The notes under the pieces: model-generated
Databases searched by the model: none
Seen by the model: only the letters and a program-made list of their open reading frames with translations
What the model was told of the DNA's origin: nothing
Shown: positions 782 to 63,955 of the stretch, one piece after another
Layout of the letters: each line of letters opens with the position of its first letter
Position numbering within the stretch: the first letter of the stretch is position 1
Made by a program: the position numbers and the translations under genes
Sequence record: MW394391.1
Origin: Klebsiella phage vB_KpM_FBKp24
Length of the DNA stretch: 64,000 nucleotides
Strand: one strand, 5' to 3'

Positions 782-788
782 TTACATA
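782..788 (-). promoter_or_regulatory. TATGTAA motif upstream of 17..748
   Basis: Minus strand aaTATGTAAagat, about 38 nt before the ATG at 748. Confidence 0.3.
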
Positions 789-843
789 TTAGAAAACGCA
801 CTGTAAAGTTTAAAAGATTACGTACTGCTAGTTATAGAGCATA

Positions 844-868
844 GAGAGAGGGGTAAAACCCCTCTCTC
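844..868 (-). terminator. hairpin GAGAGAGGGG-taaaa-CCCCTCTCTC, a weak terminator candidate
   Basis: 10-bp stem after the small gene 875..1036. Flanks are not U-rich. It belongs to the AGAG/CTCT hairpin family. Confidence 0.35.
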
Positions 869-874
869 CTTTGG

Positions 875-1036
875 TTAGTGTCGTTGCTTTTCGTCGGTGA
901 CTGTCGGGAGGTTTACTCCTTTATACTTGCATTCTTTAAAGACATTACGCAAGAATCGCTGACGTGTCTCTTCACGTTGTTTTTCAACGCGTTCATCGCC
1001 AGGGTATCTGGCAATATAGCATGGACGTTTAACCAT
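875..1036 (-). CDS. small basic protein (53 aa), not in the ORF track
   Basis: ATG at 1036..1034 preceded by an AAAGGTGA RBS. It translates MVKRPCYIARYPGDERVEKQREETRQRFLRNVFKECKYKGVNLPTVTDEKQRH, with a TAA stop at 877..875, and is followed by hairpin 844-868. It lies on the same strand as the flanking operon genes. Confidence 0.35.
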   Translation of the reverse strand: MVKRPCYIARYPGDERVEKQREETRQRFLRNVFKECKYKGVNLPTVTDEKQRH

Positions 1037-1074
1037 AGTTTCACCTTTAGTTTTCGTGGGCTTTACCGGCCCGG

Positions 1075-1764
1075 TTAGACTGTGGGGTTACTTTTGTTCG
1101 CTATCCACTGACTTGTAAGTGTTTTGAGTGCATTGCCGTTGTCGACATACGTACTCAAATTACTGTTGTCAGTGTATACTACATTACGGTCCTCGCTATT
1201 GGTAGTAGCGGAGACAATGACTAAATTTCCCTTGACCAATGGATTGGCCGTCAAAATAGTACGAAGCGTGTAACCCACGATTTCGATAAGATCAGACAAC
1301 TGCTTGTAACGGTACTGTCCATCATTGGTCGTGTCCTCTTCGTAATCTTTACGGAAGGATTCGAATAAATAGTAACCTACCCATAACGGTGCCACCGCAT
1401 AGATACTCGGATTGAAAACGTTATCAATCCGTGGCAGGAGACTATACTGATACAGCGTCGTCACGCCATAACCCAGATTTGCCAGTGTGTTAAGAACATA
1501 GTTATCTGGGAGGGCGTTGATCTTGGCTTCAATACCCGAAGCGCTATTCGGGAGTGCAACCTTTAAATGCGCAATAAGTTTTGCACGAATATCGGTTTCA
1601 CGTAAATTGATTGGCCAAGATAAAAGTGGGACCTGTTTAAACGGTTTGTTGACACCTGCGAAATCCCCAACGACAGGGGTGACTACCCAAGGCGTTAAAA
1701 GATTGACCGATTGGACAATCGCAGGTAAAGTACTGTCATCGTAAATTCCAACGGATGTCGGCAT
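1075..1764 (-). CDS. hypothetical protein
   Basis: 229-aa ORF with a GAGGGG RBS before the ATG at 1764. A TATGTAA motif and terminator lie upstream. Confidence 0.55.
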   Translation of the reverse strand: MPTSVGIYDDSTLPAIVQSVNLLTPWVVTPVVGDFAGVNKPFKQVPLLSWPINLRETDIRAKLIAHLKVALPNSASGIEAKINALPDNYVLNTLANLGYGVTTLYQYSLLPRIDNVFNPSIYAVAPLWVGYYLFESFRKDYEEDTTNDGQYRYKQLSDLIEIVGYTLRTILTANPLVKGNLVIVSATTNSEDRNVVYTDNSNLSTYVDNGNALKTLTSQWIANKSNPTV

Positions 1765-1816
1765 TACATTCCCCTCTTCGTAATAAATATAACTTATATT
1801 AAATCGGATTTAACCG

Positions 1817-1823
1817 TTACATA
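1817..1823 (-). promoter_or_regulatory. TATGTAA motif after terminator 1841-1868
   Basis: Minus strand ...uuuuauuuuaucuuguuacucTATGTAAcgg, about 57 nt upstream of the ATG at 1764. Confidence 0.3.
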
Positions 1824-1840
1824 GAGTAACAAGATAAAAT

Positions 1841-1868
1841 AAAAAGAGGAGCAAATGCTCCTCTTTTT
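1841..1868 (-). terminator. intrinsic terminator AAAAAGAGGAGC-aaat-GCTCCTCTTTTT
   Basis: 12-bp stem immediately after the stop of 1870..2616, followed on the minus strand by UUUUUAUUUUAUCUU. Confidence 0.7.
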
Positions 1869-1869
1869 A

Positions 1870-2616
1870 TTACCATTTAGAGACAAGACCCGTTTTACCA
1901 GAAATAAACGGAGTACGATCCATCTGACGAATAGCATCAACCGTGGCTTTGAAACTCGACTCCACGGAGACCAAACTTTGGTCATTGGCCATACTGCGAA
2001 TAATCGCTGGTTGTACCGGGACAATCAGTGCCGACTCGCAAGACGGTGACATGTATTTGTTTGCGCAAGACAAACCGGGTTCGTTTACGAGATCCCAGGT
2101 AATAATGTTATCGACGTATTTACGAACCTTACCGCCAACCACTCTGTCGGTCGCCATACTGCGAATACTGAACGCCAGATTCTCGTCTGGGTTAGACATG
2201 ATTTTCTCAAAATCTTCACGTCTGGCTCCCGTAGAACAAATCTCACCCATGATGGCGCAAATGCGCTGACCGTTAGGCAGAACGAAATTCGGCACAACCC
2301 AAACCTTGCGGATATGAAATGCCCAGTTACGTTCATCAATGGTGTGGATACGTTGAATGAATTTACGATAGTCGGCGTAATCGTATTCTTTGGGGTGACC
2401 CCATTCGCCGCGTAAATACCCTTCTCTCACGCGTTTCTGGAAAAGACCATTCTCCGCTAATATACGCTCAACACGTTGCTGGTCATATACCGCACCAATA
2501 CTGTTGTCGAACTCTAACGCCCCTAAAATAACTTCAAGGTAGTTGTTGTCCAGACGTTTAATATTCCCTACTCGGTTTACACCTTTCAGTGCTGTTACCT
2601 CAAATGACATCCCCAT
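1870..2616 (-). CDS. hypothetical protein (248 aa)
   Basis: ORF followed immediately on the minus strand by intrinsic terminator 1841-1868. Confidence 0.55.
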   Translation of the reverse strand: MGMSFEVTALKGVNRVGNIKRLDNNYLEVILGALEFDNSIGAVYDQQRVERILAENGLFQKRVREGYLRGEWGHPKEYDYADYRKFIQRIHTIDERNWAFHIRKVWVVPNFVLPNGQRICAIMGEICSTGARREDFEKIMSNPDENLAFSIRSMATDRVVGGKVRKYVDNIITWDLVNEPGLSCANKYMSPSCESALIVPVQPAIIRSMANDQSLVSVESSFKATVDAIRQMDRTPFISGKTGLVSKW

Positions 2617-21336: not shown

Positions 21337-22404
21337 TTATGCCAGTGCAATATACGAGTATTGTTGTTTTGCCAGGGTCAATATGTCGTTATCGCTATAG
21401 TGTTGGACAACGGCGATTTGATACGCGTACTCCGGTAAAGTGTTCAATACTGTTTTGGCATTACTGGAGATACTCCGGAAGACATCTAGTCGATGACCTG
21501 TCGGTGTGAATTGGGAACTATTCCACCGTGGGTCAATCATAGCTAAAACTGTTACCAGTTCAGTGGCATAGCTGCTGTAGCTATTAGCGTCCACAACTTT
21601 ACCGAACTTATAATTTTGCAAAACCTGTTGAACCGCATCAGGGGCTTTCTGAAGAATGTACGTCCCACCCAATGACTCAACCATCGTTTTGACAAGGGTG
21701 AGGTTCCCTGATGCCAGAACTGTCGGTAGGCTGTCCCCCATGGCTGCAGTGAGAGTTGGATTACTGGAATCACTACTGTAAACTGAAGAGACTACATTAG
21801 ACAGCCCCAAATATGCCGCCTGTTGCAATATAGAGGACTTTAACGCAGTGATCGATAGTTTGTCTTCTAAGTTCTGGAACGTGTACTCTGTGCTATTCAG
21901 GAGTGTTTTAACGCTATTGATCAAATTATTAGCGCCCAGTATATCACCTGCCGAATTTAACTGGTAAACAGCGCCATTGATATCGTTAAACGTACTGTCG
22001 ACCGTATTATTGATTTCTTGTAGGGTTGATGTCGCACCGTTGATGACCTCGTCGGAAATCCCTTTCACAGTGGAAATAGACTGACCGATCTCGTTACTTA
22101 ACTGGGAAGTAAACGCTGTAACATCTTGTTTGACCTGACTGGCTTGAGTTAAGAGGTCATTTAATGACCCTAGGTCGCTGATCTTGGTATTCAGGAGATA
22201 GTTTTTAGTATCTGACAATTTCCCTAGTAACGTGTTTTTCATGTTACTGAGAACATTGGCGGTGGTCTTCCCATAACCGTCCACTGCCACCATGGAATCT
22301 TTAACCCCAGTTGCTACCAACGAACTTTGGGTCTGTGCGGCGGCTTTTGCGGTGCTCGCTGAGTTACTCAACGTATCAACGAAGTTACTGACGTCTAACG
22401 CCAT
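21337..22404 (-). CDS. Ser/Thr/Asn-rich alpha-helical protein (355 aa), probable structural protein
   Basis: Low-complexity S/T/N/L-rich sequence with heptad-like periodicity. No enzymatic motif. Confidence 0.5.
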   Translation of the reverse strand: MALDVSNFVDTLSNSASTAKAAAQTQSSLVATGVKDSMVAVDGYGKTTANVLSNMKNTLLGKLSDTKNYLLNTKISDLGSLNDLLTQASQVKQDVTAFTSQLSNEIGQSISTVKGISDEVINGATSTLQEINNTVDSTFNDINGAVYQLNSAGDILGANNLINSVKTLLNSTEYTFQNLEDKLSITALKSSILQQAAYLGLSNVVSSVYSSDSSNPTLTAAMGDSLPTVLASGNLTLVKTMVESLGGTYILQKAPDAVQQVLQNYKFGKVVDANSYSSYATELVTVLAMIDPRWNSSQFTPTGHRLDVFRSISSNAKTVLNTLPEYAYQIAVVQHYSDNDILTLAKQQYSYIALA

Positions 22405-22688: not shown

Positions 22689-22769
22689 AGCGGGTACGCT
22701 CCAAAAAAAAATAGATTAAGGTGCATAAAGAAGAACGGTGTCTTTACACCGTTCTTCTTTTAGCTTTTA

Positions 22770-24056: not shown

Positions 24057-24096
24057 ATTCCCTCCTGTTATTGATTATGATTAAACGTTTTAGCGC

Positions 24097-24103
24097 TTAC
24101 ATA
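24097..24103 (-). promoter_or_regulatory. TATGTAA motif upstream of the 23538..24056 operon
   Basis: Minus strand cttcTATGTAAgcgct, about 45 nt before the ATG. TATGTAA also lies upstream of 1075..1764 (1817-1823) and 17..748 (782-788). Confidence 0.3.
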
Positions 24104-43608: not shown

Positions 43609-43661
43609 TGTACCATCGGCCGATGGATCAACATACCAATACTCATCAAAAAGGACCAGAC

Positions 43662-47390: not shown

Positions 47391-47429
47391 CTGTCCCTAC
47401 CTCATTATAAATGTTGATTCCATAAAATA

Positions 47430-47457
47430 AGAAAGAGGGTCCGAGGACCCTCTTTCT
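47430..47457 (-). terminator. terminator AGAAAGAGGGT-ccgagg-ACCCTCTTTCT
   Basis: After the stop of 47467..48612. UUAUUUUAU follows on the minus strand. Confidence 0.55.
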
Positions 47458-48626: not shown

Positions 48627-49544
48627 TTAAGCCAGCGATTTAATGGTCGCCGTGATTCCTGAAGTTGTGGAGGCGGTTGTCACGCTGTTACTTGTCAGCA
48701 TAGGTTCGTTAGCCCCCATTTCGAGAGTAATCACAAAACCTTGGTTATCGAAGGACAACTGCCGATAAGTGGAGAGCCAGGTAAGTACCTGAGCGTAAAT
48801 CGCCTCGACCATGTTAATCTGTGCACCACCCGGACCTGTGGCTTGTACGCTGCGCTGAATAGCGGAAACCAACCCGATTTCAGAGATGATCGCCCGCTTC
48901 TGGGATCCGTAGAGAATACTGGCGACGTTGTTCAATTCAGCAACGTCGTTCTCGTCAAACGGAACATCGACTTCCATACTGGCAGTGAGATATTCCGAGT
49001 TAGTGGTGGTCGCTTGTGCCGAAGTCAACGTCGGGCGTGTCGGGAAAAGGTTCGATGAGTTTGGTACGAATTCTGTGGTCGTAGACTCACCGTCAATCAC
49101 GACGGTATGACGCAACGTTGGTTTAGCGGCTGACAAGTCGATCTTCTTCAGGTAGTAAGAAAAATAGTTTACGCCGTTTAAATTCTCTAACTTACGCAGA
49201 GCGTAGTTAGCTCGTTCGGATGCGGAAAGGTCGTTGGTTTCTAAACGCATGACAAACGGGATCATGTTAAACGGACCGAAATCAGCAGCGGTGTGCTGAG
49301 CTGGTTCGATAATGATTTCGTTATCAGCAGCGGGGACGTTATAATGCCCTTTATCGCCAATACAGTAATACCCGAAGGCGGGGCGATCAGTAGTCGCGAT
49401 CTGTGCATCTGCGTTAATGCTCAGTCTTTCATTCAGCGTAGTGTACGCAAGCTTCGTGATTGAAAGTCCAGGTAAGAGGTGGGTTTGCAGTAAACCGCTA
49501 AGCGCCGTCCGCGCGATAAGGTTAGTGTTTGTGCTGGCACTCAT
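48627..49544 (-). CDS. hypothetical virion-module protein (305 aa)
   Basis: AGGA RBS. A TATGACA motif lies 60 nt upstream. Confidence 0.55.
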   Translation of the reverse strand: MSASTNTNLIARTALSGLLQTHLLPGLSITKLAYTTLNERLSINADAQIATTDRPAFGYYCIGDKGHYNVPAADNEIIIEPAQHTAADFGPFNMIPFVMRLETNDLSASERANYALRKLENLNGVNYFSYYLKKIDLSAAKPTLRHTVVIDGESTTTEFVPNSSNLFPTRPTLTSAQATTTNSEYLTASMEVDVPFDENDVAELNNVASILYGSQKRAIISEIGLVSAIQRSVQATGPGGAQINMVEAIYAQVLTWLSTYRQLSFDNQGFVITLEMGANEPMLTSNSVTTASTTSGITATIKSLA

Positions 49545-49599: not shown

Positions 49600-49606
49600 T
49601 GTCATA
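49600..49606 (-). promoter_or_regulatory. TATGACA motif immediately after a terminator U-tract
   Basis: Minus strand gcuuuuuTATGACAttc, about 60 nt upstream of the start of 48627..49544. Confidence 0.35.
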
Positions 49607-49609
49607 AAA

Positions 49610-49641
49610 AGCGAAGGAGAGCAGAAACGCTCTCCTTCGCT
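49610..49641. terminator. bidirectional terminator AGCGAAGGAGAGC-agaaac-GCTCTCCTTCGCT
   Basis: 13-bp stem with U-tracts on both sides. Confidence 0.7.
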
Positions 49642-49653: not shown

Positions 49654-50196
49654 TTAAGAACCGGCAGAGAATCCGTCCTGAGTATTAGGAATTTCGGCGG
49701 TGTTCAATCTTGTTTCGGAAGACGTAATCACAAGAGTGATATTACCAAACAACGTCAAGTGATCAGCAACGATGGTAACGCCAACCGATACGGTTTCATC
49801 AACATTCGTCACCGGGTCAGCAACTGTAATGTCGGACGCAACCATCGATGAAGAAAAATTGGCCACGAGATAAGCCAGTGCAGAGGCAGCGGCATGTGAA
49901 GCGTCCCAGTTACTGAGGTCGTCAGTAATAGCTTTCTCGATGTTATAGCTCGCAATGTCTTTACGAACGTAATAAACGGTTTTCGCTTCCCCATAAACCA
50001 GGGTTGAGGTCGAAACTGGCGTGAGTAGAACGCTAGTATTGGCGCCATCATCTCTTCCCGATACTGCGGTAATCGCAGTAGCAGTGAGATCGTCGTCAGT
50101 AAATACCGCTCCATCCGGAAGCGCGGTTGTTGACTTGGTTAACAGGTCATAGAACGCGGCTTTGGGAGTTTTGGTTAAATCAAGAGCGACTGCCAT
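49654..50196 (-). CDS. hypothetical protein (180 aa)
   Basis: AAAGGAAAA RBS. Followed by bidirectional terminator 49610-49641. Confidence 0.55.
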   Translation of the reverse strand: MAVALDLTKTPKAAFYDLLTKSTTALPDGAVFTDDDLTATAITAVSGRDDGANTSVLLTPVSTSTLVYGEAKTVYYVRKDIASYNIEKAITDDLSNWDASHAAASALAYLVANFSSSMVASDITVADPVTNVDETVSVGVTIVADHLTLFGNITLVITSSETRLNTAEIPNTQDGFSAGS

Positions 50197-50229: not shown

Positions 50230-51072
50230 TTAACTCAAATTGTAGTGTAAGATTAAATGCCCTGCGACATTCGTACATAAGGTGGTGTCCAGATGGATCA
50301 CAACGCAGCGCTCGTAATTGGTATTAACGTAAACCGGGGCGGATGACGTGAGGCCGTTATACCAGACAGTTGCGCCGGCCATATTCCATTCAGCCGGAGT
50401 AGGCGTGTTGACCCACTGATCTGGAGATTTACGGTTTAGAATAGTGAGTAGTTCACCCTCGATCAAATCCCCATAACCGAATCGCTGCATGTTATCGGCA
50501 TCGTAGGTATAGTCCTGAGCGTAGAGATAAAGCGGCCCCTGAATTTTTACTGACTGATTAGTTGGGTAAGCTAACCCAGCAAGATCGGTGTTACGAATGA
50601 CGGTATCGATGGCCTTTTTCGGGTCGCCGATGTTGACTTCTAAAATCCCAGTAAAAGCAGGGCAGGTTGGCCTGACTCGTAACTGAGTCACAGTGGGGAC
50701 AGTACTGAGGTTCAGGACTTCGTCATAGATGTCTTCTGCGGCTAACTGGAAACCGAAGTTCAAGTTAATCTCCGCTAGAAGATCTGATTTTTTAAACTTG
50801 TTACTGGCGGAAACGTACACTTGGACATCACTGAAAATCTGGGCAAGGTTCGGACGGTTCCAGGTTAATGTCACTTCCCCTTCACGTCCCATCCCGGGAA
50901 TAGCCATCAATTTACCGACAGTATTACGGGCAGTATCGCCATTCGTATTTTCGGTAAAATTGGTTAAGCGTACTTGGTCTTGTGTAAAGTCACTGTCCGG
51001 GTTCGCCTCTTTGATCAAGTCGAAAACCAGCTCATCCGTCGGCTTATTGTAATACCCATTCGCTGCAGCCAT
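50230..51072 (-). CDS. hypothetical virion-module protein (280 aa)
   Basis: A TATGACA motif lies 35 nt upstream, after terminator 51113-51136. Confidence 0.55.
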   Translation of the reverse strand: MAAANGYYNKPTDELVFDLIKEANPDSDFTQDQVRLTNFTENTNGDTARNTVGKLMAIPGMGREGEVTLTWNRPNLAQIFSDVQVYVSASNKFKKSDLLAEINLNFGFQLAAEDIYDEVLNLSTVPTVTQLRVRPTCPAFTGILEVNIGDPKKAIDTVIRNTDLAGLAYPTNQSVKIQGPLYLYAQDYTYDADNMQRFGYGDLIEGELLTILNRKSPDQWVNTPTPAEWNMAGATVWYNGLTSSAPVYVNTNYERCVVIHLDTTLCTNVAGHLILHYNLS

Positions 51073-51102: not shown

Positions 51103-51109
51103 TGTCATA
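51103..51109 (-). promoter_or_regulatory. TATGACA motif immediately after a terminator U-tract
   Basis: Minus strand ccuuuuuugtTATGACAta, about 35 nt upstream of the start of 50230..51072. Confidence 0.35.
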
Positions 51110-51112
51110 ACA

Positions 51113-51136
51113 AAAAAGGCGGTCTCCCGCCTTTTT
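51113..51136. terminator. bidirectional terminator AAAAAGGCGG-tctc-CCGCCTTTTT
   Basis: Classic A-tract/stem/T-tract structure after 51152..53596. Confidence 0.75.
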
Positions 51137-51151
51137 CATTTATTGTACGTA

Positions 51152-53596
51152 TTACTCGAAAGTGAGAAGCGTATCAGTGGGGAAGTACTCATTTAACCGT
51201 AAAGGTTCGGCGAACCCCAACAGGGTATCTGGCATGACTTGCCAGAGCTGTACTCTCGGAATGTCTTTAACCCACAGACCGTCTAAGACAGTATTGGACA
51301 GCGACAATGCAGGATCAGGTTGGACCTTGTTGACCCACAGACCATTAAGGTTCCGAACGAGGACTTCCGTCTGGAGTAAGTCATCCACTTGCGGTGGGTA
51401 GACCCAGAGACCCGGGAGCGCTAACGTCGTGATTATGTCTTCTATCGGTCGGTATGTAACATGATATAGCCACAATCCGTTAAGCGCTGTATTACTGACA
51501 TCCAGCTCAATGTCTTTGGTCAAAGAGCCTTTGAAACGAACTTCAGCAATCGGGATACGATGAATCGTTTTGATTGCAGTGTCGCAAAGGAACCCAATTC
51601 CCCAATCCAGTTTGTAGTAGTAATTGGCGTAGATCTGTTTCAGGTCAAGGTTAATCGATCTGAACGGAGGAACGTCCGTCGAGGACTTCGCCCTTTGTTT
51701 CTGGTTGATCACTTCCACTCGTGACGGAAGTTGAACTTTACCATAACCTTTACTCTCAACATTACCATACCGGACCGCTAGATTATCCAAAACAATACCG
51801 GGAGCAGCAATCGTTTTATGAACGTACTGGACGCCATAAGACGAAAGCTGAGTCATGATCCCGATCATCGCTGTGTGGATATCTGATATACTGATCGTTG
51901 AGCGCAAGTCAGACCCGGTTGCTACGGTAAAAATACTCAGCGCAAACTCGGACCATTCTGTCGGGGTGGTCATGCTCAACTTCCAGTTCTTCTCTTTAAA
52001 CCACTCTGTGTAAGTGGTAGGCGTGTCAATCAGTACGCACAATTCATCGCAATAAAACTTACGACACAGAACTTCCCACTCCCCGCGTTGATAGAAATCT
52101 TCCATCGAAGTATACATCATACGGTGTGCAGAGATGTTCCCTTGAATAGCCACTGCGGTCGAATAAAAGGCTTCGGTAGAGATAATACTGTTGACCAAGG
52201 TAGTTTCCGTCATGGCGACCTGAATCCCTAACTCAGTCACGTATTTTTTCTGCGTGGCGCGACGTAACTCCGAAAATGTTGGGGTCGGGATTCGTTGCGC
52301 AAAGAAAGCAGTGAGGTTGGGGATATCTGTCAACGTCACTTCAAATTGTTGCATGACGCTGTACACCCAAAGAATCAACGCTTCTTTAACTGACATTGAC
52401 ATCGCTTCCTGACTAACAGGATCAGTCAGAATGATGTTCGCCGTGTACTTCCCGTGTGAAGCTAAATAGATCCACTCGGTCAGTAATGTGTCGGTCAACT
52501 TCCGTGGCATCGCATCGGACTGATCAACCATTACCGATTCAAGTACTTTTGTCGGCAGGACGTTAGTGATTGCATTCTTCACCATGTCAGGAACGACGGT
52601 CTGTTGTGTTTCCAGATAATCAGCGTTATCCTTTGCCGAGTTCACCTCGTTAGCTAACGCGTCTTCAATGGTGATGTACTGGATACCACTAACAGATTCT
52701 GCCAGGGTGTTCTGTGGGACTTTGGCAATAGTACCGGCAGAATAAATGTTCTCGCTTACTGAGGTTACGTCTTGCTGAATTTCGTAAGCCGTCAACGGAA
52801 TTCTGCGGTCAGTAAGGATATTGGCAATCAGGTCGACAAATGTGTCGGTTTTACCAGCGTGAGCCTCAATGTACTCTATGTTACGGTAGAGGTAAAGACT
52901 CTGTTTAAGACTGGCATAATCTTTAAACTGATTCAGTCTTTCGTGCGAACCCAAATAACACCATAAATGATAACTGTGAACTTGAGGTGTGCGCACATAC
53001 CGGTTACGGATATTGATGATCTCGCCGGGTAGGTGTGTGAATAATAGTCCAAAGAAAGTGGCCGGGTACTGAACCTGTACTCTGGCTGGTAAAGGCATAT
53101 ACCAACGTTGGACAAAGTTGTTGATCCAAACCTGGAGATCAGCGATTAAATAGACCTCTTGACTTTCGACTTCGTCTGAATCGTAATACAAGATTTCCCA
53201 GTCATCTGCTGCCAGAATCTTATCCATAGATACAGGGTTCAATATCCCGCGAATCAATGTTTCTTGATTCGGGTAGCGCGATAGCAAGTTCTGGTAATAG
53301 CTACTACCAAAACTATACGCCTTTCGAGTGGCGCGGTGTAACAACAGGTTATCATATGTGAAGTCGATCGTCTCCAGTGTATCTAACGATACGACGGTCA
53401 TAGGGGTATCGCTGGCGTGGTATAACCCCGCCAGATTCATATAGTACGCCCATGTCGACGGAGAGTCTGGATCTACAGTATAACCTATTTGGCTCAGGTA
53501 ATTATTACGCATCGCTGCCGCAGCAGGAAACTTTAAGGTCAATGTTTGTGCTAAATTAATGACACTGTCTAAATACAATTTCTGCGTGGTATCCAC
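51152..53596 (-). CDS. large hypothetical virion-module protein (814 aa; GTG start)
   Basis: GAGGAG RBS before a GTG start. Divergent from the 929-aa gene. Confidence 0.55.
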   Translation of the reverse strand: MDTTQKLYLDSVINLAQTLTLKFPAAAAMRNNYLSQIGYTVDPDSPSTWAYYMNLAGLYHASDTPMTVVSLDTLETIDFTYDNLLLHRATRKAYSFGSSYYQNLLSRYPNQETLIRGILNPVSMDKILAADDWEILYYDSDEVESQEVYLIADLQVWINNFVQRWYMPLPARVQVQYPATFFGLLFTHLPGEIINIRNRYVRTPQVHSYHLWCYLGSHERLNQFKDYASLKQSLYLYRNIEYIEAHAGKTDTFVDLIANILTDRRIPLTAYEIQQDVTSVSENIYSAGTIAKVPQNTLAESVSGIQYITIEDALANEVNSAKDNADYLETQQTVVPDMVKNAITNVLPTKVLESVMVDQSDAMPRKLTDTLLTEWIYLASHGKYTANIILTDPVSQEAMSMSVKEALILWVYSVMQQFEVTLTDIPNLTAFFAQRIPTPTFSELRRATQKKYVTELGIQVAMTETTLVNSIISTEAFYSTAVAIQGNISAHRMMYTSMEDFYQRGEWEVLCRKFYCDELCVLIDTPTTYTEWFKEKNWKLSMTTPTEWSEFALSIFTVATGSDLRSTISISDIHTAMIGIMTQLSSYGVQYVHKTIAAPGIVLDNLAVRYGNVESKGYGKVQLPSRVEVINQKQRAKSSTDVPPFRSINLDLKQIYANYYYKLDWGIGFLCDTAIKTIHRIPIAEVRFKGSLTKDIELDVSNTALNGLWLYHVTYRPIEDIITTLALPGLWVYPPQVDDLLQTEVLVRNLNGLWVNKVQPDPALSLSNTVLDGLWVKDIPRVQLWQVMPDTLLGFAEPLRLNEYFPTDTLLTFE

Positions 53597-58756: not shown

Positions 58757-60367
58757 TTAATTACTGATTTCGTCTTGTACTTGGTCAAGGAGCTCAATGT
58801 TTTTCGGGTTGCGGATAAACTTCCCGGATTCGTCGGTGTGGGCGTAAACGTTTAGCCGTCCACGACCGTCGGGAATACCTTTGGCGAAATTACACACTGA
58901 GCCACACTCCATGATACTGGCGTGGAGGTGATATGCTGCTTCATTAGGTTTGAAGCTTTTTGTCTTCCCTTTACCAATAACTGCGTTGACTTGACGAATA
59001 GCGATACATGTATGCTTGAAGATCATGTTGTCGCCGGGGTATTGTACCGAGTTCAATTCGCCGTGACCTCGCTGAATGCCTAAGAAAGCATTCGTTGTCA
59101 GGAAACTTGAAAGTTTCCAAGTCAGACGTTTAAGTCGGAGAGTTTTCTGTTCTTTTTCCAGTTGCCATGTAAAGTTGAAAATACTCTCTGTAATGCCCGA
59201 TAAAGCATAGCGCTTCACTAAGAGATACTTACCCCACATGTTACCGGAGTTATCGTCTTTAAGACGATCCTGAATCGTTTCCAGGATATGGATAAACAAC
59301 TCGTACAAGTCGTTTGCCATAATCCCTTCCTGACGAAGGTTTTTCTTTGTTTCTCCGTCGACGTAACTGTCGAGCGACTTGAGATGAAGATCCACTTTGT
59401 TTAGCAGTTTCCCTTCGTTCTCATTTCCTTGGTGTAAAATGAACCCCATGATAATACGCCATGTATCAGGCATGTCGATATATTGCAAACTGAAACGGTT
59501 AGGATAACGGTCAACCACGTAGAAGAAATGCGTGGCCAGCAGTTTAACCCCAATGTTCTCTGTTGCTTCACGAGGAATGATCAACGCAAGGTTAGTCGGT
59601 TTCCAGTCGGAGATCGCTCGGCGGCGCTCTGGCGGCGGAAGACCTTGTGTAGTGTAAACCACATAGTCTTCTATTGGGTATTGCTCACGGAGGTTTGCGT
59701 GGTTCTCCTCTATCGCGACGTCAATCCCATAGAACCGTTTGAACGTCTCGGTCACTCCATATTTACAGAAGAGATAATGACCAAGGGTAGAATGGAACTG
59801 TTTACTTTTCCCTTCATTCCCTGTTTTTCCCTGATAGATGTTACCGTAAACAACGAAGGATGGGATAGATTCCCCGTCCTGTAGTAACGTATAGATACTC
59901 CGTTTTAACGTGAACTTGGCACGGAAAAGAATCGTGAAAAGATCGTTTCCGGCAACCGAGAACACCAGGTCGGCAAGAATAGGGTGAATCGTTGCACGAC
60001 TACCGCCGAGCCAGATAGTTCCTGCTTCTCGAACAAACGGGATGTTGATATTACGCTGGAGAATGTGCGTGCCCTGAAAACGTAACTTCATCTCGGACAT
60101 CACCGCATCGGTTTGTGCTATGTCGACTTCCCCTCTTCGTTCGGCTTTCTCATTTCCCTTGATAATCGCCTGTGCCTCTTCGTAAGGCGTTAACCGGCGC
60201 ATTCCTAAATACTCTACGTCGGGCGGGTAATCTTGCGCTGCACATTGCGCAATACGGTCGACATACGCCTCTGCGTCTTCCATGTCCTTTACAGCAAACC
60301 CGCCGGCGATATCCGGGTTAAACTTCGGTAAAGGATCTACGATATCATCGAACAGTACGTTATCCAC
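58757..60367 (-). CDS. hypothetical protein (536 aa)
   Basis: Operon member between the 331-aa and 734-aa genes. Confidence 0.55.
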   Translation of the reverse strand: MDNVLFDDIVDPLPKFNPDIAGGFAVKDMEDAEAYVDRIAQCAAQDYPPDVEYLGMRRLTPYEEAQAIIKGNEKAERRGEVDIAQTDAVMSEMKLRFQGTHILQRNINIPFVREAGTIWLGGSRATIHPILADLVFSVAGNDLFTILFRAKFTLKRSIYTLLQDGESIPSFVVYGNIYQGKTGNEGKSKQFHSTLGHYLFCKYGVTETFKRFYGIDVAIEENHANLREQYPIEDYVVYTTQGLPPPERRRAISDWKPTNLALIIPREATENIGVKLLATHFFYVVDRYPNRFSLQYIDMPDTWRIIMGFILHQGNENEGKLLNKVDLHLKSLDSYVDGETKKNLRQEGIMANDLYELFIHILETIQDRLKDDNSGNMWGKYLLVKRYALSGITESIFNFTWQLEKEQKTLRLKRLTWKLSSFLTTNAFLGIQRGHGELNSVQYPGDNMIFKHTCIAIRQVNAVIGKGKTKSFKPNEAAYHLHASIMECGSVCNFAKGIPDGRGRLNVYAHTDESGKFIRNPKNIELLDQVQDEISN

Positions 60368-60388: not shown

Positions 60389-61384
60389 TTATAAAACAAC
60401 CGCTGCGCCCCACGCCGCTTTTTTCGCCAAAAAGGACAATAACCATTTTCCTGCTCTCAGCATTGTTGGGAGAATCGACTTAATAAACTCTCCGCCTGCT
60501 TTAATCCATGCAGAGGCGAGTTTCGCTTTCTTCTCTTTGTCTTCTTCCTTTTCAGGTTTCGCTTGTTTCAGCGCCATCTGAATCTCTTCGAGTTCCTTTA
60601 ACACAGATTCTCTAGAGGTGTGGAATTTGATTCCCAGTGGATTATTACCAGAAAGCGCATCTTCGAAACTGAAGAAACTCTTTGAGGCCAATAACCGATT
60701 CCCTCCCTTTATTCTACCATAGCTTTGCGCGGTAACGCCGTCAGGTTCGATTGACGCCCGTGAGACATTTACTTTCATCACTTGTCCGCCTAAAGCATAA
60801 TAGAGTCCTTCTACATAACGCTCTTTATCGACGGCATTCACCACAATACCTGACACCTTACTGATTTTGCAACCGGTATCGTCTTCGACAATATCGTGAA
60901 TACTTTCTTCACGATCAAGAAACGACGCTCGTGTGATCTTCATCCCTAAACCCGGGATGTTAACCTCCGAACCCAAATCGTTAAAGTCGTTTTCATCAAT
61001 CACGAAAACCATTCGATAACGATAATGGTTTCGCGAACGACGCTTCTCTTCTTCGAAATGTACCATGCAATGACCTTTCACGGCGTCATAAAGGCCAAAG
61101 CTCGCTTCAGCATAATTATTCTGAGGGTCGTCAATATTGACCGTGTCTGTGCAATAAATGACCGTCAGATGAATAATTAAACAATCGCGTAACTTCGCTG
61201 CGCCGTGGGAAAATAACTCATTGTCAGTCCCATCTGATTTTTGCACCGCCAAACCAAAACGATAATTGTTGGTCATCTCCACGGTAACGCAGAGATCACA
61301 ATTACCGGTTCGATAATCGTTTGCAGAAATCAGTGTCTCTAGGGGCATCTGTTCTTTTCTTGGATTCTCACGCTTATAAACCAT
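60389..61384 (-). CDS. hypothetical protein (331 aa) with an amphipathic/hydrophobic C-terminus
   Basis: TAAGGTG RBS. The C-terminal KAGGEFIKSILPTMLRAGKWLLSFLAKKAAWGAAVVL may be membrane-active. Confidence 0.5.
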   Translation of the reverse strand: MVYKRENPRKEQMPLETLISANDYRTGNCDLCVTVEMTNNYRFGLAVQKSDGTDNELFSHGAAKLRDCLIIHLTVIYCTDTVNIDDPQNNYAEASFGLYDAVKGHCMVHFEEEKRRSRNHYRYRMVFVIDENDFNDLGSEVNIPGLGMKITRASFLDREESIHDIVEDDTGCKISKVSGIVVNAVDKERYVEGLYYALGGQVMKVNVSRASIEPDGVTAQSYGRIKGGNRLLASKSFFSFEDALSGNNPLGIKFHTSRESVLKELEEIQMALKQAKPEKEEDKEKKAKLASAWIKAGGEFIKSILPTMLRAGKWLLSFLAKKAAWGAAVVL

Positions 61385-61434
61385 CCTACACCTTATTTGT
61401 TAATTGGGAACGGAATACTTCTTACCGTACGTTT

Positions 61435-61478
61435 GACCTTTCTCAAGGGTCAATTTGGATCTTTCTCAAGGATCCATT
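61435..61478. repeat. two tandem 21-nt direct repeats (18/21 identical), each internally dyad-symmetric
   Basis: GACCTTTCTCAAGGGTCAATT at 61435-61455 and GATCTTTCTCAAGGATCCATT at 61458-61478, with GACC...GGTC and GATC...GATC ends. They lie 50-95 nt upstream of the start of the 60389..61384 operon. Confidence 0.5.
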
Positions 61479-61536
61479 AATACTCTCTCAATAAGGTAAT
61501 ATAGGTTTCAAGAAAATTCGATATGGCAAACATAGA

Positions 61537-61565
61537 CCCAGTCCCTCGCAATGCGAGGGACTGGG
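61537..61565 (-). terminator. hairpin CCCAGTCCCTCGC-aat-GCGAGGGACTGGG downstream of the major capsid gene
   Basis: 13-bp GC-rich stem 34 nt after the stop of the capsid gene. Confidence 0.55.
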
Positions 61566-61598
61566 CTAAGGCTTATTTAACTAAGCAATGACGCTAAC

Positions 61599-63887
61599 TT
61601 AAGACGCCGGGGTAACCTGGGTCTCGTTAACATCCAGCGCGGTGCGCTGCGCGATCGCTTCTTCCAGGTTGATCACGTTGATGACCAGCATGATCGGCAG
61701 GAAGTTGAAGTAACGGTAACGCGGGGTCAGGCGGATTTCACGGCCGATACGTTGGTTACGGATCATGTTGAAATCAACCAGGTACTCAGGGATGAAGCCC
61801 AGAACACCGTGCTGCAGCGGATGCGGCTCAGACTCGTTCGGCAGGATGAAGGTCATGACGATTTTGTCTTTCATACGCAGATCGGAGATACGCGCGATGG
61901 TGTAATCGTAACCGATACCCACGGTGCGGTCATCGCCATTGATCTGGATGTACTGCGGCAGACGCATGTCAGTACCGATCGCTACGTGCGGCTTCGGAGA
62001 ACGGCCAGAGAAGGCAGCTTCCAGAGCAGCGGTGTAACCGGTCAGCTGATCAGCGGTGTAAACCATTTCGTTGATTTTGGAAACGATCAGGCCCTGGATA
62101 TCGGTCTGCTTAGCAGCCGAGGTCAGGTTGTTCAGATCGTTCAGCACGTCAATGGTCGCTTCGTTGTAGTACGGACGAACGTAGTACTGGCCAACGCCTT
62201 CCAGACCGAGGTTAGATTCGATCGGATGCGGTACACCAACGCCCAGGTAGGACTTCAGGGTGTCGGCGCGGTTCAGCAGGGTGGTCACAGCGTTGTTACG
62301 CATCTGCTGAATACGGTACGCAGTGGTCAGTGCTTCCAGGCGCGGATAGGTTTTGTCGTCTTCAACCATGGCCGGTTTAACGATGACCAGCGGCGGCAGA
62401 GTCGGGATCATGAAGCCCTGTTTCTGTACGTCGGAGTCGATCAGCAGGCCCATTTCCAGCTGGTTGATGTTGGTCAGACGCGCTTCCAGGCTATAACCTA
62501 CGCCGGTTACGGTCAGGCCGCTCAGTGCCGCAGAAACGCGAGAATCGGTCAGGGCGATTTCTTTGCCTTCTTTATCGAAGACACGCGCCAGACGCAGGGC
62601 ACGCAGAGAGGTGTCGCCGTTACCGTTTTCGACGTTCATTTCGCCGTCAACTTTCACGTCCAGTTCGATGCGGTAGCCCAGATCAAACAGATCTTTCAGC
62701 AGTGCAGATTCCGCGCCAGCCACGGTGGTGCTTTCTTCGCCCAGGCCCAGGGAGGTGTGGAACTTCAGCTGCATCAGACGGAAGTTGTATTCACGGGTCG
62801 CCGTGTACGCAGCGTACTGGTCGCGGTTTACGTCCAGTGCGAACAGTTCAGTGGTACCGCCTTTGGTGACCGAGATCAGAAGCTGTTTCAGCGCAATACG
62901 GCTGTCCAGGGAGTCGGTAAAGGTCATGGAACCTTTTTTCAGACGGGACGGAGTTTGCGCCAGCATCAGCAGGTTGAAGCCTTCGCCGTTTTCGCTGAAT
63001 TTCAGGAAGTTGGTGTCGAAGGTATCTTTACCTTGTTTCACGGTCTGCGCAGGCAGGACGGACGGATCGATGAACTGTTCGTCGTTTTCGCCGGACTGGA
63101 TAACCGGGATCAGCTCGGTGCTGTTGGTTTCCAGAGTGGTGTAATCCAGCAGACCTTGCAGGATGTTACGTTTGGAGATCTCTTGTTTCTCGCCGCTCAG
63201 ACCTTCGCCGGTCCAGCCTTCCCATACCAGGTTACGACGGATAGAGAGCTGGAAGCCAGCCTGGTCCGGGGTAACGATATAGGTGCGATAGAACAGTTCA
63301 GCGAACTCGTGCTGTTTTGCCACGATCATGTTGATCGCGTAGGAATGTTCGCGCCATTTTTCGGTTTCTTTCTCATCGAAAGATTCCAGAGACGGCAGAG
63401 ATTTTGCCGGCAGAGTCGCGATGGAACCGTTAGCGCCTGCGGAAACGAATTCGTTCACGCGAACGTCGCTTTCGAAAGACGGAACGGCGTAACCGTCACG
63501 GTAATACGCACGCGGGCTGTTGTGGGACATCGCCAGAATAGCGGCAGCTTCCACTGCAACTTCTTTCTGGTGCTGGCGCAGGTCATCACCGCCGTCAACG
63601 AAACCTTCGCCTTCGCCATCAACCGCGTCGGTAGCTTCGGTGATCGCAGAGATCTGCTCAACCGCGTCGTTCAGGGAATCCTTCACTGCTTCCAGGGTGT
63701 TTTCAATGTCATCAGCCTGAACGCCCAGCGCGTCGTAGCTTTCCAGAGCTACGGACATGACACCGGCAGCCTGACCCTGTGGCAGCATTGTGTGGTTCTT
63801 TTCAACGGACTGGCGAACGCTGTCGACCAGTGATTTAATTGCGCCAGCAGCGCCGGCGTTAAGAAGACCTTTTTTAGGACGTGCCAT
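61599..63887 (-). CDS. probable major capsid protein (762 aa)
   Basis: Its size is typical of phiKZ-like jumbo-phage major capsid proteins (~750 aa). It is the only gene in the window with a markedly higher GC content and enterobacterial optimal-codon usage (CTG, CGT, GGT, ACC, AAC, TTC), which indicates very high expression. An AAAGGAA RBS lies upstream and terminator 61537-61565 downstream. The assignment rests on size and expression signature only. Confidence 0.5.
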   Translation of the reverse strand: MARPKKGLLNAGAAGAIKSLVDSVRQSVEKNHTMLPQGQAAGVMSVALESYDALGVQADDIENTLEAVKDSLNDAVEQISAITEATDAVDGEGEGFVDGGDDLRQHQKEVAVEAAAILAMSHNSPRAYYRDGYAVPSFESDVRVNEFVSAGANGSIATLPAKSLPSLESFDEKETEKWREHSYAINMIVAKQHEFAELFYRTYIVTPDQAGFQLSIRRNLVWEGWTGEGLSGEKQEISKRNILQGLLDYTTLETNSTELIPVIQSGENDEQFIDPSVLPAQTVKQGKDTFDTNFLKFSENGEGFNLLMLAQTPSRLKKGSMTFTDSLDSRIALKQLLISVTKGGTTELFALDVNRDQYAAYTATREYNFRLMQLKFHTSLGLGEESTTVAGAESALLKDLFDLGYRIELDVKVDGEMNVENGNGDTSLRALRLARVFDKEGKEIALTDSRVSAALSGLTVTGVGYSLEARLTNINQLEMGLLIDSDVQKQGFMIPTLPPLVIVKPAMVEDDKTYPRLEALTTAYRIQQMRNNAVTTLLNRADTLKSYLGVGVPHPIESNLGLEGVGQYYVRPYYNEATIDVLNDLNNLTSAAKQTDIQGLIVSKINEMVYTADQLTGYTAALEAAFSGRSPKPHVAIGTDMRLPQYIQINGDDRTVGIGYDYTIARISDLRMKDKIVMTFILPNESEPHPLQHGVLGFIPEYLVDFNMIRNQRIGREIRLTPRYRYFNFLPIMLVINVINLEEAIAQRTALDVNETQVTPAS

Positions 63888-63948
63888 TTTATTACGTTCC
63901 TTTAATAACGTTATTTTAGAAACTCTCTCGACAGCGCTGTCAAGAAAT

Positions 63949-63955
63949 TGTCATA
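63949..63955 (-). promoter_or_regulatory. TATGACA motif (candidate phage late-promoter core) upstream of the major capsid gene
   Basis: Minus strand aTATGACAa about 70 nt before the ATG. The same heptamer lies upstream of 48627..49544 (49600-49606) and 50230..51072 (51103-51109). Confidence 0.35.

Follow-up and report, generated by a model that had tools for sequence, protein, structure and literature searches.

TATG elements upstream of genes in Klebsiella phage vB_KpM_FBKp24 as candidate initiator promoters and terminator-linked modules

Introduction

Do the TATG-containing heptamers that recur upstream of genes in Klebsiella phage vB_KpM_FBKp24 mark promoters of the phage's own RNA polymerase, or do they belong to the terminator hairpins next to which some of them lie? 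The stretch of 64,000 nt analyzed here (the window) shares 98.8% identity with Klebsiella phage vB_KpM_Centimanus. This jumbo phage is phiKZ-like and nucleus-forming, with the nuclear shell protein and PhuZ among its annotated genes. An initial annotation had proposed TATG(T/A)(A/C)A as a promoter of the phage RNAP by analogy to phiKZ, the middle and late promoters of which it took to be TATG-centered. This holds for the late promoters, T(-3)ATG(+1), all four bases of which are required, whereas the middle promoters carry a different motif at -24 (PMC4666361). The non-template TATG is bound by phiKZ GP123 (PMC12809450).

RNA Polymerase Genes of the Phage

The complete five-subunit set of the phiKZ-type non-virion RNAP (nvRNAP) has homologs in this phage (gp74, gp71-73, gp55, gp68, and gp123). 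RNAP genes had been claimed for the window, and it indeed contains the gene for the GP123 homolog, which had gone unrecognized and aligns over residues 4-531 of 536 (phmmer, E=2.4e-61). Seven of its 16 TATG-contact residues are identical as compared to 29% identity overall, albeit conservation of the contacts is only partial, with Tyr399, Ser330, Lys190 and Asn398 changed or ambiguously aligned. The large RNAP genes of the window (5891-10369 and 10386-12017) gave no match to the solved nvRNAP and probably encode the virion RNAP.

Position and Conservation of the TATG Motif

The proposed heptamer turned out to be over-specified, as genome-wide the invariant core is the tetramer TATG within a weak context TnY-TATG-W-M: position 5 is A/T in 76% and position 6 A/C in 69% of cases, and position 7 is uninformative. 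Among all 256 tetramers TATG ranks first between 28 and 55 nt ahead of start codons, with 48 occurrences as compared to 20.6 expected (p=1.8e-7) and to 23.9 (sd 3.7) under a rotation null. As chance would account for about 20 of these 48, any given site is uncertain. The peak at 30-49 nt upstream of starts is strand-asymmetric, comprising 39 TATG versus 9 CATA, and at terminator-free divergent junctions 21 of 48 leader genes carry a TATG. TATG is only weakly associated with structural genes (9/17 annotated structural genes versus 48/158 others, p=0.10). The position of TATG implies 5' UTRs of about 27-46 nt, in agreement with the 31-40 nt typical for phiKZ (PMC8244752).

In KpXa_1, a relative of 77% identity, 72% of the TATG sites are intact as compared to 42% for all tetramers, making TATG the best-conserved tetramer (p=1.2e-5); in the positional scan of that genome it ranks second. 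In a different genus, represented by the Moabitevirus Pectobacterium phage ParM-25, TATG again ranks first (42 observed versus 17.2 expected, p=3e-7). The ParM-25 spacers have no nucleotide similarity to those of this phage, and several TATG sites of the window are kept in orthologs. Most likely, the RNA polymerase encoded by the phage uses the upstream TATG as its start-site promoter, as in phiKZ.

TATG Sites in the Window

The six minus-strand heptamers and the plus-strand variants TATGTTA and TATGATT were all found where the initial annotation had placed them (Table 1). TATGs of the same kind that fall outside the heptamer definition had been missed at 22724-22727, 43632-43635, 47421-47424, 61531-61534, 840-843 and 63986-63989.

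Table 1. Features of the window. Distances are counted from the T of TATG to the start codon.
Feature	Coordinates	Strand	Remark
TATG, hairpin 844-868	840..868	-	TATG 840-843 abuts 3' arm; terminator-tail type
TATG (TATGTAA 782-788)	785..788	-	40 nt upstream of gene 17..748
TATG (TATGTAA 1817-1823)	1820..1823	-	59 nt upstream of gene 1075..1764
Terminator-like hairpin, 15 pairs	1838..1871	-	after head maturation protease gene 1870..2616
TATG (TATGCAC), hairpin 22728-22759	22724..22759	-	TATG 22724-22727 abuts hairpin; 39 nt upstream of gene 22395..22688
TATG (TATGATT 24076-24082)	24076..24079	+	109 nt upstream of annotated start 24185
TATG (TATGTAA 24097-24103)	24100..24103	-	47 nt upstream of gene 23538..24056
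Early-type box TATATCAC-N5-TG	24145..24159	-	
TATG (TATGTTA 28756-28762)	28756..28759	+	46 nt upstream of gene 28802..29674
Early-type box TATATCAC-N5-TG	35804..35818	-	upstream of gene 35133..35774
TATG (TATGTTG)	43632..43635	-	free-standing; 39 nt upstream of virion structural gene 41365..43596
TATG, TATTT, hairpin 47430-47457	47421..47457	-	TATG 47421-47424, 43 nt upstream of RuvC-like gene
TATG (TATGACA 49600-49606)	49603..49606	-	62 nt upstream of gene 48627..49544
Intrinsic-terminator-like hairpin, 14 bp stem	49610..49641	-	ends upstream gene 49654..50196
TATG (TATGACA 51103-51109)	51106..51109	-	37 nt upstream of virion structural gene 50230..51072
Terminator-like hairpin	51110..51139	-	after gene 51152..53596
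GP123 homolog gene, beta-like nvRNAP subunit	58757..60367	-	phmmer vs PDB 7OGP chain E
Early-type box, TATATTAC variant	61489..61503	-	upstream of 60389..61384 and GP123-homolog operon
TATG, 1 nt, capsid-gene terminator hairpin 61536-61566	61531..61566	-	TATG 61531-61534
TATG (TATGACA 63949-63955)	63952..63955	-	68 nt upstream of major capsid gene start
Second TATG (TATGAAA), capsid-gene leader	63986..63989	-	102 nt from start codon

The best promoter candidate of the window is the TATG at 63952, upstream of which the hairpin finder detected no hairpin and which is identical in KpXa_1, as is the capsid 5' UTR. The box at 63986 is the first of two tandem TATGs and is conserved in L014, L015, L016 and ParM-25; the arrangement of both boxes persists across four lineages with capsid identities as low as 68%, and the intervening DNA has diverged. 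The phiKZ capsid gene is likewise preceded by several promoters (PMC11512511). The TATGs at 24100, for which the hairpin finder detected no hairpin, and at 785, which has no adjacent hairpin, are both conserved in KpXa_1; the ParM-25 ortholog of gene 23538..24056 has no TATG and retains the early box alone, and gene 17..748 has no ortholog in ParM-25. The plus-strand TATG at 28756 lies in a divergent spacer without terminator and is conserved in KpXa_1 and, as TTTTTATGTTG at 41 nt, in ParM-25. The site at 43632 is conserved in KpXa_1, and ParM-25 has it at 38 nt, along with a downstream palindrome. The TATG at 24076 is a weak promoter candidate beyond the usual distance range.

Three sites had been described as following directly on the U-tract of a terminator. 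This is true for two of them, in both cases with the hairpin found by the terminator scan as well as the hairpin finder. The TATG at 49603, the sole one of its spacer, starts 3 nt past the stem, and the 45 nt upstream of it have a folding energy of -25.1 kcal/mol; in the ParM-25 ortholog a hairpin of other sequence is followed by TTATTT-TATG at 59 nt. The TATG at 51106 abuts the stem and is conserved in KpXa_1, and ParM-25 retains TGT-TATG at 43 nt. The third site, at 1820, sits 15 nt past its hairpin; it is conserved in KpXa_1 and missing from the ParM-25 ortholog. The hairpin-TATG unit at 22724 is also conserved in KpXa_1. For the RuvC-like gene, the ParM-25 leader combines a hairpin unlike that of the window with T-TATG at exactly 43 nt, and in KpXa_1 the TATG is degraded to TATAG.

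The phiKZ early promoter, too, has a counterpart here, namely the motif TATATCAC-N5-TG; the TATATTAC variant of this motif at 61489 is identical to the phiKZ early form. Gene 23538..24056 has such a box besides its TATG. As an early-type promoter lies 28 nt downstream of the TATG at 61531, this site is the clearest example of a terminator tail.

TATG as Part of Terminators

Could the TATG enrichment as a whole be the tail of terminators of the phage RNAP, with the apparent positioning arising from stereotyped terminators in short spacers and without any promoter function? The published phiKZ terminator motif consists of a hairpin directly followed by TTAT[G/T] (PMC10914365). TATG follows the stem at a fixed offset of 0-3 nt in 17.6% of tandem and 21.7% of convergent terminators. 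At these offsets past strong stems it is the top tetramer in phiKZ (tandem 18 versus 3.5, convergent 26 versus 2.8), at ParM-25 convergent junctions (13 versus 2.6) and at Centimanus tandem junctions (14 versus 2.5); for Centimanus convergent terminators the count was not significant (4 versus 1.4). Moreover, 34% of the positioned TATGs are found within 10 nt of a hairpin as compared to 14% at control positions. Since TATG is equally frequent at convergent terminators, which need no promoter, and matches the phiKZ terminator motif, the arrangement of hairpin, U-tract and TATG stressed in the initial annotation is indistinguishable from a terminator-tail motif. The sites 49600 and 51103 may accordingly act in termination, in initiation, or in both; a distance-to-start test on hairpin-adjacent TATGs did not separate promoter from terminator tail (p=0.11).

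That terminators account for all sites is nevertheless unlikely. TATGs without a hairpin within 25 nt keep the positional peak and the strand bias (25 TATG versus 7 CATA, p=0.001), TATG is present in divergent spacers lacking an upstream co-directional gene, the capsid-gene boxes are hairpin-free yet conserved across genera, and no hairpin precedes P119L, a proven promoter of phiKZ (PMC7618050). The proposed phage-RNAP promoter is thus the best reading at hairpin-free sites, whereas at hairpin-adjacent sites it is inseparable from a terminator tail. The TATGs at 63949, 24097 and 782 have the appearance of genuine initiator promoters, as probably does the one at 1817.

Other Explanations

TATG could also act at the RNA level, as a site of endonuclease processing or a regulatory element of the 5' UTR. 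Its fixed position relative to the start codon, the high conservation of the leaders downstream of several TATGs, including the capsid 5' UTR, and conserved palindromes at 63904-63915 and 43613-43626 would be consistent with such a role. We consider it quite improbable, as TATG is identical to the experimentally proven initiator of a homologous polymerase system, the gene of the TATG-reading subunit lies in the window, and no Rfam family matched anywhere across the window.

Is the pattern a post hoc product of AT-rich intergenic DNA? Within the window, the heptamer pattern is not enriched over both strands (25 matches versus 30.9 expected), nor is bare TATG of unconstrained position in intergenic DNA (20 versus 16.6), and phiKZ itself has no positional TATG signal upstream of starts. 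In addition, the expectation of 0.2 heptamers per strand in intergenic DNA had been set too low: four different heptamers satisfy the pattern and the DNA is AT-rich, so that shuffles give 1.5. Against these 1.5, the 3.1 kb of intergenic DNA contain seven matches in gene-sense orientation (P ~0.001 for a pattern defined after inspection of the data), a density 14 times that of coding sense DNA. Chance is effectively refuted by the unbiased tetramer scans in two genera and the conservation of TATG, and the strand asymmetry also stands against it.

A host sigma-70 promoter with TATGNN as degenerate -10 hexamer is highly improbable: TATG is similar to the TATA of TATAAT, and other parts of the window contain host-type promoter-like matches at roughly the chance rate, but a -35 partner is not found above the control rate, position 6 of the supposed hexamer is T in only 21%, 49400-51300 contains no sigma-70-like match, -40 to -4 has no information content, and transcription in phiKZ-type phages is independent of host RNAP. 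Just as improbable is that the ATG within TATG, shortly upstream of genes as it is, represents a real start codon of a mis-annotated longer gene or a small upstream ORF, given that it falls evenly into the three frames (17/24/21) and is both in-frame and open in only 4 of 62 cases, and that -12 to -5 is pyrimidine-rich instead of containing a purine-rich Shine-Dalgarno sequence.

Proposed Mechanism

We propose, with a probability of about 0.6, that the TATG sites form two overlapping populations, free-standing initiator promoters of the nvRNAP and hairpin-adjacent terminator modules, some of which may double as promoters. A free-standing TATG some 28-55 nt upstream of a start would function like a phiKZ late promoter, a class that would include 63952-63955, 63986-63989, 24100-24103, 785-788, 28756-28759, 43632-43635 and probably 1820-1823. 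By homology to phiKZ, the nvRNAP would be the reader of TATG. The sigma-like GP68 homolog would open the DNA, the GP123 homolog would bind the four non-template bases under the beta-lobe, and transcription would begin at the G of TATG as the putative +1 base, yielding the short 5' UTRs described above; an upstream -10 or -35 element would be unnecessary. The temporal class of these promoters, presumably late, is likewise suggested by homology.

A TATG 0-3 nt past a GC-rich hairpin would in turn belong to a family-conserved terminator module (hairpin and Y-TATG/TTAT[G/T]). At 49603-49606, 51106-51109, 22724-22727 and 47421-47424 it may also drive the gene about 30-65 nt downstream, a dual use that is possible only because this type of promoter requires no upstream sequence. 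The TATG signal in this phage is therefore real, and largely what would be expected given the knowledge of phiKZ promoters.

TATG Upstream of Start Codons

The window is 98.8% identical to the genome of Klebsiella phage vB_KpM_Centimanus (Centimanus; OZ240615.1, 299,730 bp), window positions corresponding to about the OZ240615.1 position minus 11,357, and the whole Centimanus genome with its annotation was used for the genome-wide tests. Centimanus, whose annotation lists a nuclear shell protein, PhuZ tubulin and many split RNA polymerase beta and beta' genes, is a phiKZ-like nucleus-forming jumbo phage. The KpLz/KpXa group is related to it at about 77% nucleotide identity, and the next clade out consists of Moabite-type Serratia and Pectobacterium phages; a search with the capsid protein alone retrieved only three loci.

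In the 287 upstream intergenic regions of the complete Centimanus genome, sense-strand TATG forms a sharp peak 30-49 nt upstream of start codons, with 39 copies as compared to 9 of its reverse complement CATA, which served as strand control. An unbiased scan of all tetramers 28-55 nt upstream placed TATG at rank 1 of 256 (48 observed versus 20.6 expected, p=1.8e-7), and TATGA was the top pentamer in the same scan. The proposal of the initial annotation that a TATG-type motif recurs ahead of operons is thus upheld by a genome-wide, strand-aware look at intergenic DNA, the motif being both positionally enriched and strand-biased. In a position matrix built from 62 sites TATG alone is fixed, accompanied by a weak T at -3, a pyrimidine at -1 and, following the core, A/T and then A/C; the information content is about zero from -40 to -4 upstream of TATG, and no -35 partner was found above the control rate. 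About 40% of the positioned TATGs correspond to chance expectation, and single sites are accordingly uncertain. The association with structural genes is suggestive in direction only, TATG preceding 9 of 17 annotated structural genes versus 48 of 158 others (odds ratio 2.6, p=0.10, with most genes unannotated); among its carriers are the capsid, tail sheath, terminase and tail-fibre genes.

Within the window, the six minus-strand TATG(T/A)(A/C)A heptamers originally singled out (63949, 49600, 51103, 24097, 1817 and 782) and both plus-strand variants (28756 and 24076) were confirmed in their coordinates and in their distances to the start codon. Chance occurrence had been put too low at 0.2, since shuffles give 1.5 for the gene-sense strand of 3.1 kb intergenic DNA; seven matches are seen there (P ~0.001, for a pattern chosen post hoc), at 14 times the density in coding sense DNA. 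Over the whole window and both strands there are 25 matches versus 30.9 expected, that is, no enrichment. The 7-mer is also over-specified, as its seventh base carries no information and only the TATG core is fixed, and it misses like sites in the window at 22724, 43632, 47421, 61531, 840 and 63986 (Table).

Table. TATG sites by class, early-type boxes and related upstream elements. Positions are those of the window, except for those beginning with L, which refer to pieces of the Centimanus record.
Feature	Position	Strand	Remarks
Free-standing TATG, candidate initiator-type promoter	63952 + 63986	minus	capsid gene leader, no hairpin
Free-standing TATG, candidate initiator-type promoter	24100	minus	
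Free-standing TATG, candidate initiator-type promoter	785	minus	
Free-standing TATG, candidate initiator-type promoter	28756	plus	
Free-standing TATG, candidate initiator-type promoter	43632	minus	
TATG, probably free-standing initiator-type promoter	1820	minus	hairpin ends 15 nt upstream
Hairpin-adjacent TATG with gene following	49603	minus	terminator tail; may double as next gene's promoter
Hairpin-adjacent TATG with gene following	51106	minus	terminator tail; may double as next gene's promoter
Hairpin-adjacent TATG with gene following	22724	minus	terminator tail; may double as next gene's promoter
Hairpin-adjacent TATG with gene following	47421	minus	terminator tail; may double as next gene's promoter
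Hairpin-adjacent TATG, no direct gene	840	minus	terminator tail
Hairpin-adjacent TATG, no direct gene	61531	minus	terminator tail; early-type promoter comes next
Early-type box TATATYAC-N5-TG	24145-24159	minus	
Early-type box TATATYAC-N5-TG	35804-35818	minus	
Early-type box TATATYAC-N5-TG	61489-61503	minus	upstream of GP123-homolog operon
AAACTGCATTTCGATT(C/T)TTA region	L004:22340-22389	plus	upstream region, record 172390
AAACTGCATTTCGATT(C/T)TTA region	L004:43997-44048	plus	upstream region, record 194049
AAACTGCATTTCGATT(C/T)TTA region	L005:16876-16923	plus	upstream region, record 216924

Could the signal have a more ordinary origin? A sigma-70 promoter would be expected to show T at position 6 of the would-be -10 element, which is found in only 21% of the sites, and -35 matches equal the control; around 49600 and 51103 there are no sigma-70-like sites. 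That TATG simply contains start codons is contradicted by its ATG falling evenly across the three frames, being in frame and open in only 4 of the 62 sites. Chance is excluded by rank, strand bias and conservation.

Conservation in Related Phages

In KpXa_1, a relative at about 77% identity, 38 of 53 positioned TATGs are intact as compared to 42% for all tetramers, which makes TATG the best-conserved tetramer (p=1.2e-5), and all eight sites of the initial annotation are retained. The complete genome of Pectobacterium phage vB_ParM-25 (ParM-25, a Moabitevirus) again puts TATG at rank 1 of 256 (42 versus 17.2, p=3e-7) with a peak likewise at 30-49 nt, the ParM-25 leaders being only 59% identical to the aligned Centimanus orthologs. 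An earlier 72-kb Moabite-type sample (L023 + L016) had yielded 7 TATG versus 6 CATA, an underpowered count that the full ParM-25 genome overturned. At individual genes, two tandem TATG boxes in the capsid-gene leader are kept in four lineages, with diverged DNA between the boxes, and the ParM-25 orthologs of sites 49600 and 47421 have other hairpin sequences in the same layout of hairpin, T-tract and TATG, at 59 versus 62 and 43 versus 43 nt from the start codon, respectively. ParM-25 lacks the TATGs at 1817 and 24097 and has no ortholog for site 782. Across genera, the presence of TATG is concordant between orthologs (odds ratio 7.9); the CATA control is concordant too, because a CATA in a divergent spacer is the TATG of the neighbouring gene, and the concordance was therefore not counted as clean evidence.

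The same scan in the phiKZ strain PaZh_1 gave no positional or strand signal for TATG upstream of genes, TATG and CATA counts being about equal. Late promoters of the phiKZ type have been stated to be unpredictable in these phages (PMC7598289). Centimanus differs from phiKZ in its Klebsiella host and a GC content of 47%, and TATG is visible by position here and not in phiKZ, likely because the phiKZ genome is far more AT-rich (~37% GC).

TATG at Terminators

The intrinsic terminator motif of phiKZ, 5'-BCCYCCCCHWWDGGGRRGGBYTTATKYYGT-3', combines a hairpin with a TTAT[G/T] tail (Putzeys et al. 2024, PMC10914365). In the window, hairpins with TATG 0-5 nt downstream are found at 49610-49641, 51110-51139, 22728-22759, 47430-47457, 61536-61566 and 844-868. 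Three of the originally described sites had been reported to follow a terminator directly, which holds for 49606 and 51109, whereas 15 nt separate the end of the hairpin from the motif at 1823. The succession of hairpin, U-tract and TATG had been read as a promoter placed after a terminator, a reading that the arrangement does not permit by itself as TATG also tails convergent terminators. Among the pooled terminators of Centimanus and ParM-25, a TATG no more than 12 nt from the stem accompanies 17.6% of the tandem and 21.7% of the convergent ones. The corresponding figure for convergent terminators of phiKZ is 18 of 28, with the offset fixed at 0-3 nt, and when ParM-25 is read with its own annotation, stem-Y-TATG-TTT is seen in 7 of the 25 terminator reads that lie at true convergent junctions. 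Counted for strong stems and corrected for the position-specific composition of the tail, TATG is the top tetramer at offsets 0-3 in phiKZ at tandem (18 versus 3.5) and convergent junctions (26 versus 2.8), in ParM-25 at convergent junctions (13 versus 2.6) and in Centimanus at tandem junctions (14 versus 2.5); at convergent junctions of Centimanus the excess is not significant (4 versus 1.4). Hairpin-adjacent TATG, which tails convergent terminators in phiKZ and ParM-25, therefore appears to be a terminator-linked module, and one that is conserved across the family.

In phiKZ (PaZh_1), 26 of 41 strong convergent-junction hairpins are followed by TATG at offset 0-3, so that the clearest computational footprint of TATG in this phage is at terminators and not at promoters. 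Many terminator stems in the Centimanus record (L001-L006), for example 844-868, 47430-47457 and 49610-49641 of the window, share composition rather than sequence, the 5' arm being rich in purines (GAGAGAGG/AGAAAGAGGG) and the 3' arm in pyrimidines (CCTCTCTC), which recalls the phiKZ consensus CCYCCCC...GGGRRGG with the arms swapped.

Is the upstream TATG then merely a by-product of termination? Hairpin-free TATG is not, because the excess at 28-55 nt persists when no hairpin lies within 25 nt (25 TATG versus 7 CATA, p=0.001), TATG is found in 21 of 48 leader genes at divergent, terminator-free spacers, the capsid boxes have no hairpin, and the proven phiKZ promoter P119L has none upstream either (PMC7618050). 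The U-tract might in addition have been a melting region of the promoter, yet T content upstream is 47% at hairpin-adjacent sites versus 34%, the background, at hairpin-free sites; T-richness is limited to the former and the T-tract therefore belongs to the terminators. Apart from the hairpin-adjacent copy, the spacers at 49603 and 51106 contain no TATG; a promoter can be joined straight onto a terminator if it requires nothing upstream. The contrast in hairpins less than 30 nt from the next start codon, 0 of 12 TATG-bearing versus 15 of 60 others, is not significant, and the comparison of hairpin-to-start-codon distance is suggestive only (9/12 versus 28/60, p=0.11). The base after TATG showed no significant differences between promoter- and terminator-type sites, the class with no gene downstream including antisense reads of tandem spacers.

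Polymerases and Comparison with Known Promoters

Which polymerase would recognize such a promoter? All four bases of the phiKZ late promoter T(-3)ATG(+1) are needed by the purified five-subunit non-virion RNA polymerase (nvRNAP) (PMC4666361), whose beta-like subunit GP123 binds the four non-template TATG bases under its lobe and whose sigma-like subunit GP68 opens the DNA (PMC12809450). Searches against the chains of PDB 7OGP identified homologs of gp55 (E=3.4e-47), gp68 (E=5.1e-31), gp71-73 (E=2.9e-81) and gp74 (E=9.1e-68) in Centimanus, and the minus-strand gene 58757-60367, annotated only as 'polymerase', encodes a full-length GP123 homolog (E=2.4e-61). This gene lies just past the capsid gene, as in phiKZ, and has an early-type promoter box ahead of it. 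Of the residues contacting TATG, 7 of 16 are identical (Phe151, which stacks on G+1, Lys158, His331, Ser144, Ser334, Gln466 and Arg156) versus 29% identity overall; the stacking residues His185 and Tyr406 are substituted by other aromatic residues, and Tyr399, Ser330, Lys190 and Asn398 are unconserved or ambiguously aligned. This pattern is consistent with, rather than proof of, a retained specificity for TATG.

The minus-strand genes 5891-10369 and 10386-12017, both annotated as 'RNA polymerase beta subunit' (1492 and 543 aa), match no solved phiKZ nvRNAP chain; the larger protein has marginal matches to bacterial beta only, and the smaller matches only weakly (E ~1e-5), to beta' of a different RNA polymerase of solved structure (7s00/7s01). 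Their products are probably subunits of the virion RNA polymerase (vRNAP), for which we know of no solved structure. The earlier argument that a phage-read promoter fits the polymerase genes in the window consequently stands through the GP123 homolog only and not through the two large genes, which have no nvRNAP match.

If the G of TATG is +1, the 5' UTRs would be about 27-46 nt long, near the 31-40 nt typical of phiKZ (PMC8244752). By homology to phiKZ we infer this start position as well as the temporal class and the polymerase specificity. With phiKZ late promoters such as P119L the Centimanus sites share the TATG core on the non-template strand, the absence of a conserved upstream -10/-35 element, a similar implied 5' UTR length, and an occurrence before the capsid gene and some other virion genes, with several boxes before the capsid gene; all five nvRNAP subunits including the TATG-binding GP123 have Centimanus homologs. 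They differ in the weak extras (T at -3, pyrimidine at -1, W and M after G), in start sites that are predicted, and in a pocket of which only the seven residues are identical. The terminators resemble the phiKZ motif in that a T-rich TAT(G) comes 0-3 nt after a GC-rich hairpin, with or without a following gene, and differ in that stem sequences are unconserved between genera and the Centimanus tail is clear at tandem and not significant at convergent junctions. The nvRNAP of the Bacillus jumbo phage AR9 is a related enzyme, likewise with split beta and beta' and with a sigma-like subunit as an integral part; at its late promoters, however, the sigma-like subunit reads a uracil-containing motif on the template strand, located at -11 to -8, which the TATG motif does not resemble.

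Early-Type Boxes and Other Leader Elements

A second motif, TATATCAC-N5-TG, occurs in 25 copies in the Centimanus genome with a strand bias of 23:2. Copies lie ahead of the nuclear shell gene and of the genes for the gp68 and gp71-73 homologs, and ahead of none of the 17 annotated structural genes. The window contains three boxes of the form TATATYAC-N5-TG versus 0.14 expected, and the TATG sites of the initial annotation lack it; the early-type box is a promoter class separate from the TATG motif. The early (vRNAP) promoters of phiKZ have a TATATTAC box, AT-rich, about 10 nt long and highly conserved, with a T-rich upstream element, and lie before early genes. The architecture of TATATCAC-N5-TG is the same with one base changed (T to C in most copies), and the window's second motif is the counterpart of this box. 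TTTCGATT is also seen about 25 nt before several early boxes, in too few copies to be established as an upstream element.

Three isolated plus-strand genes carry the near-identical upstream element AAACTGCATTTCGATT(C/T)TTA 5-15 nt before their TATG; this could be a promoter element of a third, middle type, or else a cassette that the genes have in common. In the capsid leader (63904-63915, minus) a perfect 12-nt palindrome, AATAACGTTATT, lies immediately 5' of the Shine-Dalgarno sequence and persists, in an otherwise diverged leader, in each of the four lineages examined, capsid identity falling as low as 68%. It may act as a translational operator or be bound by a protein. The leader of 41365..43596 contains a 14-nt GC-rich palindrome, CCATCGGCCGATGG (43613-43626, minus), starting 6 nt downstream of TATG 43632-43635, and its exact conservation in the leader of the ParM-25 ortholog marks it as a putative conserved 5' UTR hairpin. 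Rfam gave no matches within the window. Outside the window, a tRNA cluster of Centimanus includes at 121400-121483 of the record (L003:21400-21483) an annotated 'tRNA-Stop(tta)' with anticodon tta, a candidate ochre-suppressor tRNA.

A Possible Role of TATG at Both Ends of the Transcription Unit

Could the same four bases serve nvRNAP at both ends of a transcription unit, initiating at promoters and signalling a pause or release at terminators? We regard this as unlikely, at roughly one chance in five, but the model can be outlined. As GP123 is an integral core subunit, the TATG pocket would stay with the elongating enzyme, and a non-template TATG emerging 0-3 nt past the hairpin would be a candidate for capture by it. 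Capture could pause the polymerase as the hairpin forms and so promote termination, possibly with immediate re-initiation if a gene follows. A precedent for a single pocket acting at starts and pauses might be the core recognition element (CRE) of bacterial RNA polymerase, where a pocket of the beta subunit reportedly binds non-template bases at or beside the start site and is said to be active in elongation too, modulating pausing. At the CRE little more than a single G at +2 is read, and with low specificity, as compared to the four bases read by GP123; TATG would in this model be an expanded CRE-like element. The TATG tails of convergent terminators suggest that the GP123 pocket may be active in termination as well. 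If true, the model would explain hairpin plus TATG at convergent junctions in three genera (Centimanus taken alone not being significant) and the fusion of terminator and promoter without a spacer.

Implications

A literature search found no promoter description for this phage group. The phiKZ signal set of early box, TATG initiator and terminator of hairpin plus TAT[G] appears recognizable in an enterobacterial chimallivirus. Modestly new is the TATG tail at convergent terminators in three genera (4 versus 1.4 and not significant in Centimanus), and so is the finding that a start-site promoter can be located computationally in genomes of ~47% GC, which was thought impossible in phiKZ itself. 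Such genomes are comparative material on what beyond four bases gives nvRNAP its specificity. If confirmed, these assignments would amount to a working map of promoters and terminators for the nucleus-forming jumbo phages of enterobacteria, which are candidates for Klebsiella phage therapy and engineering.
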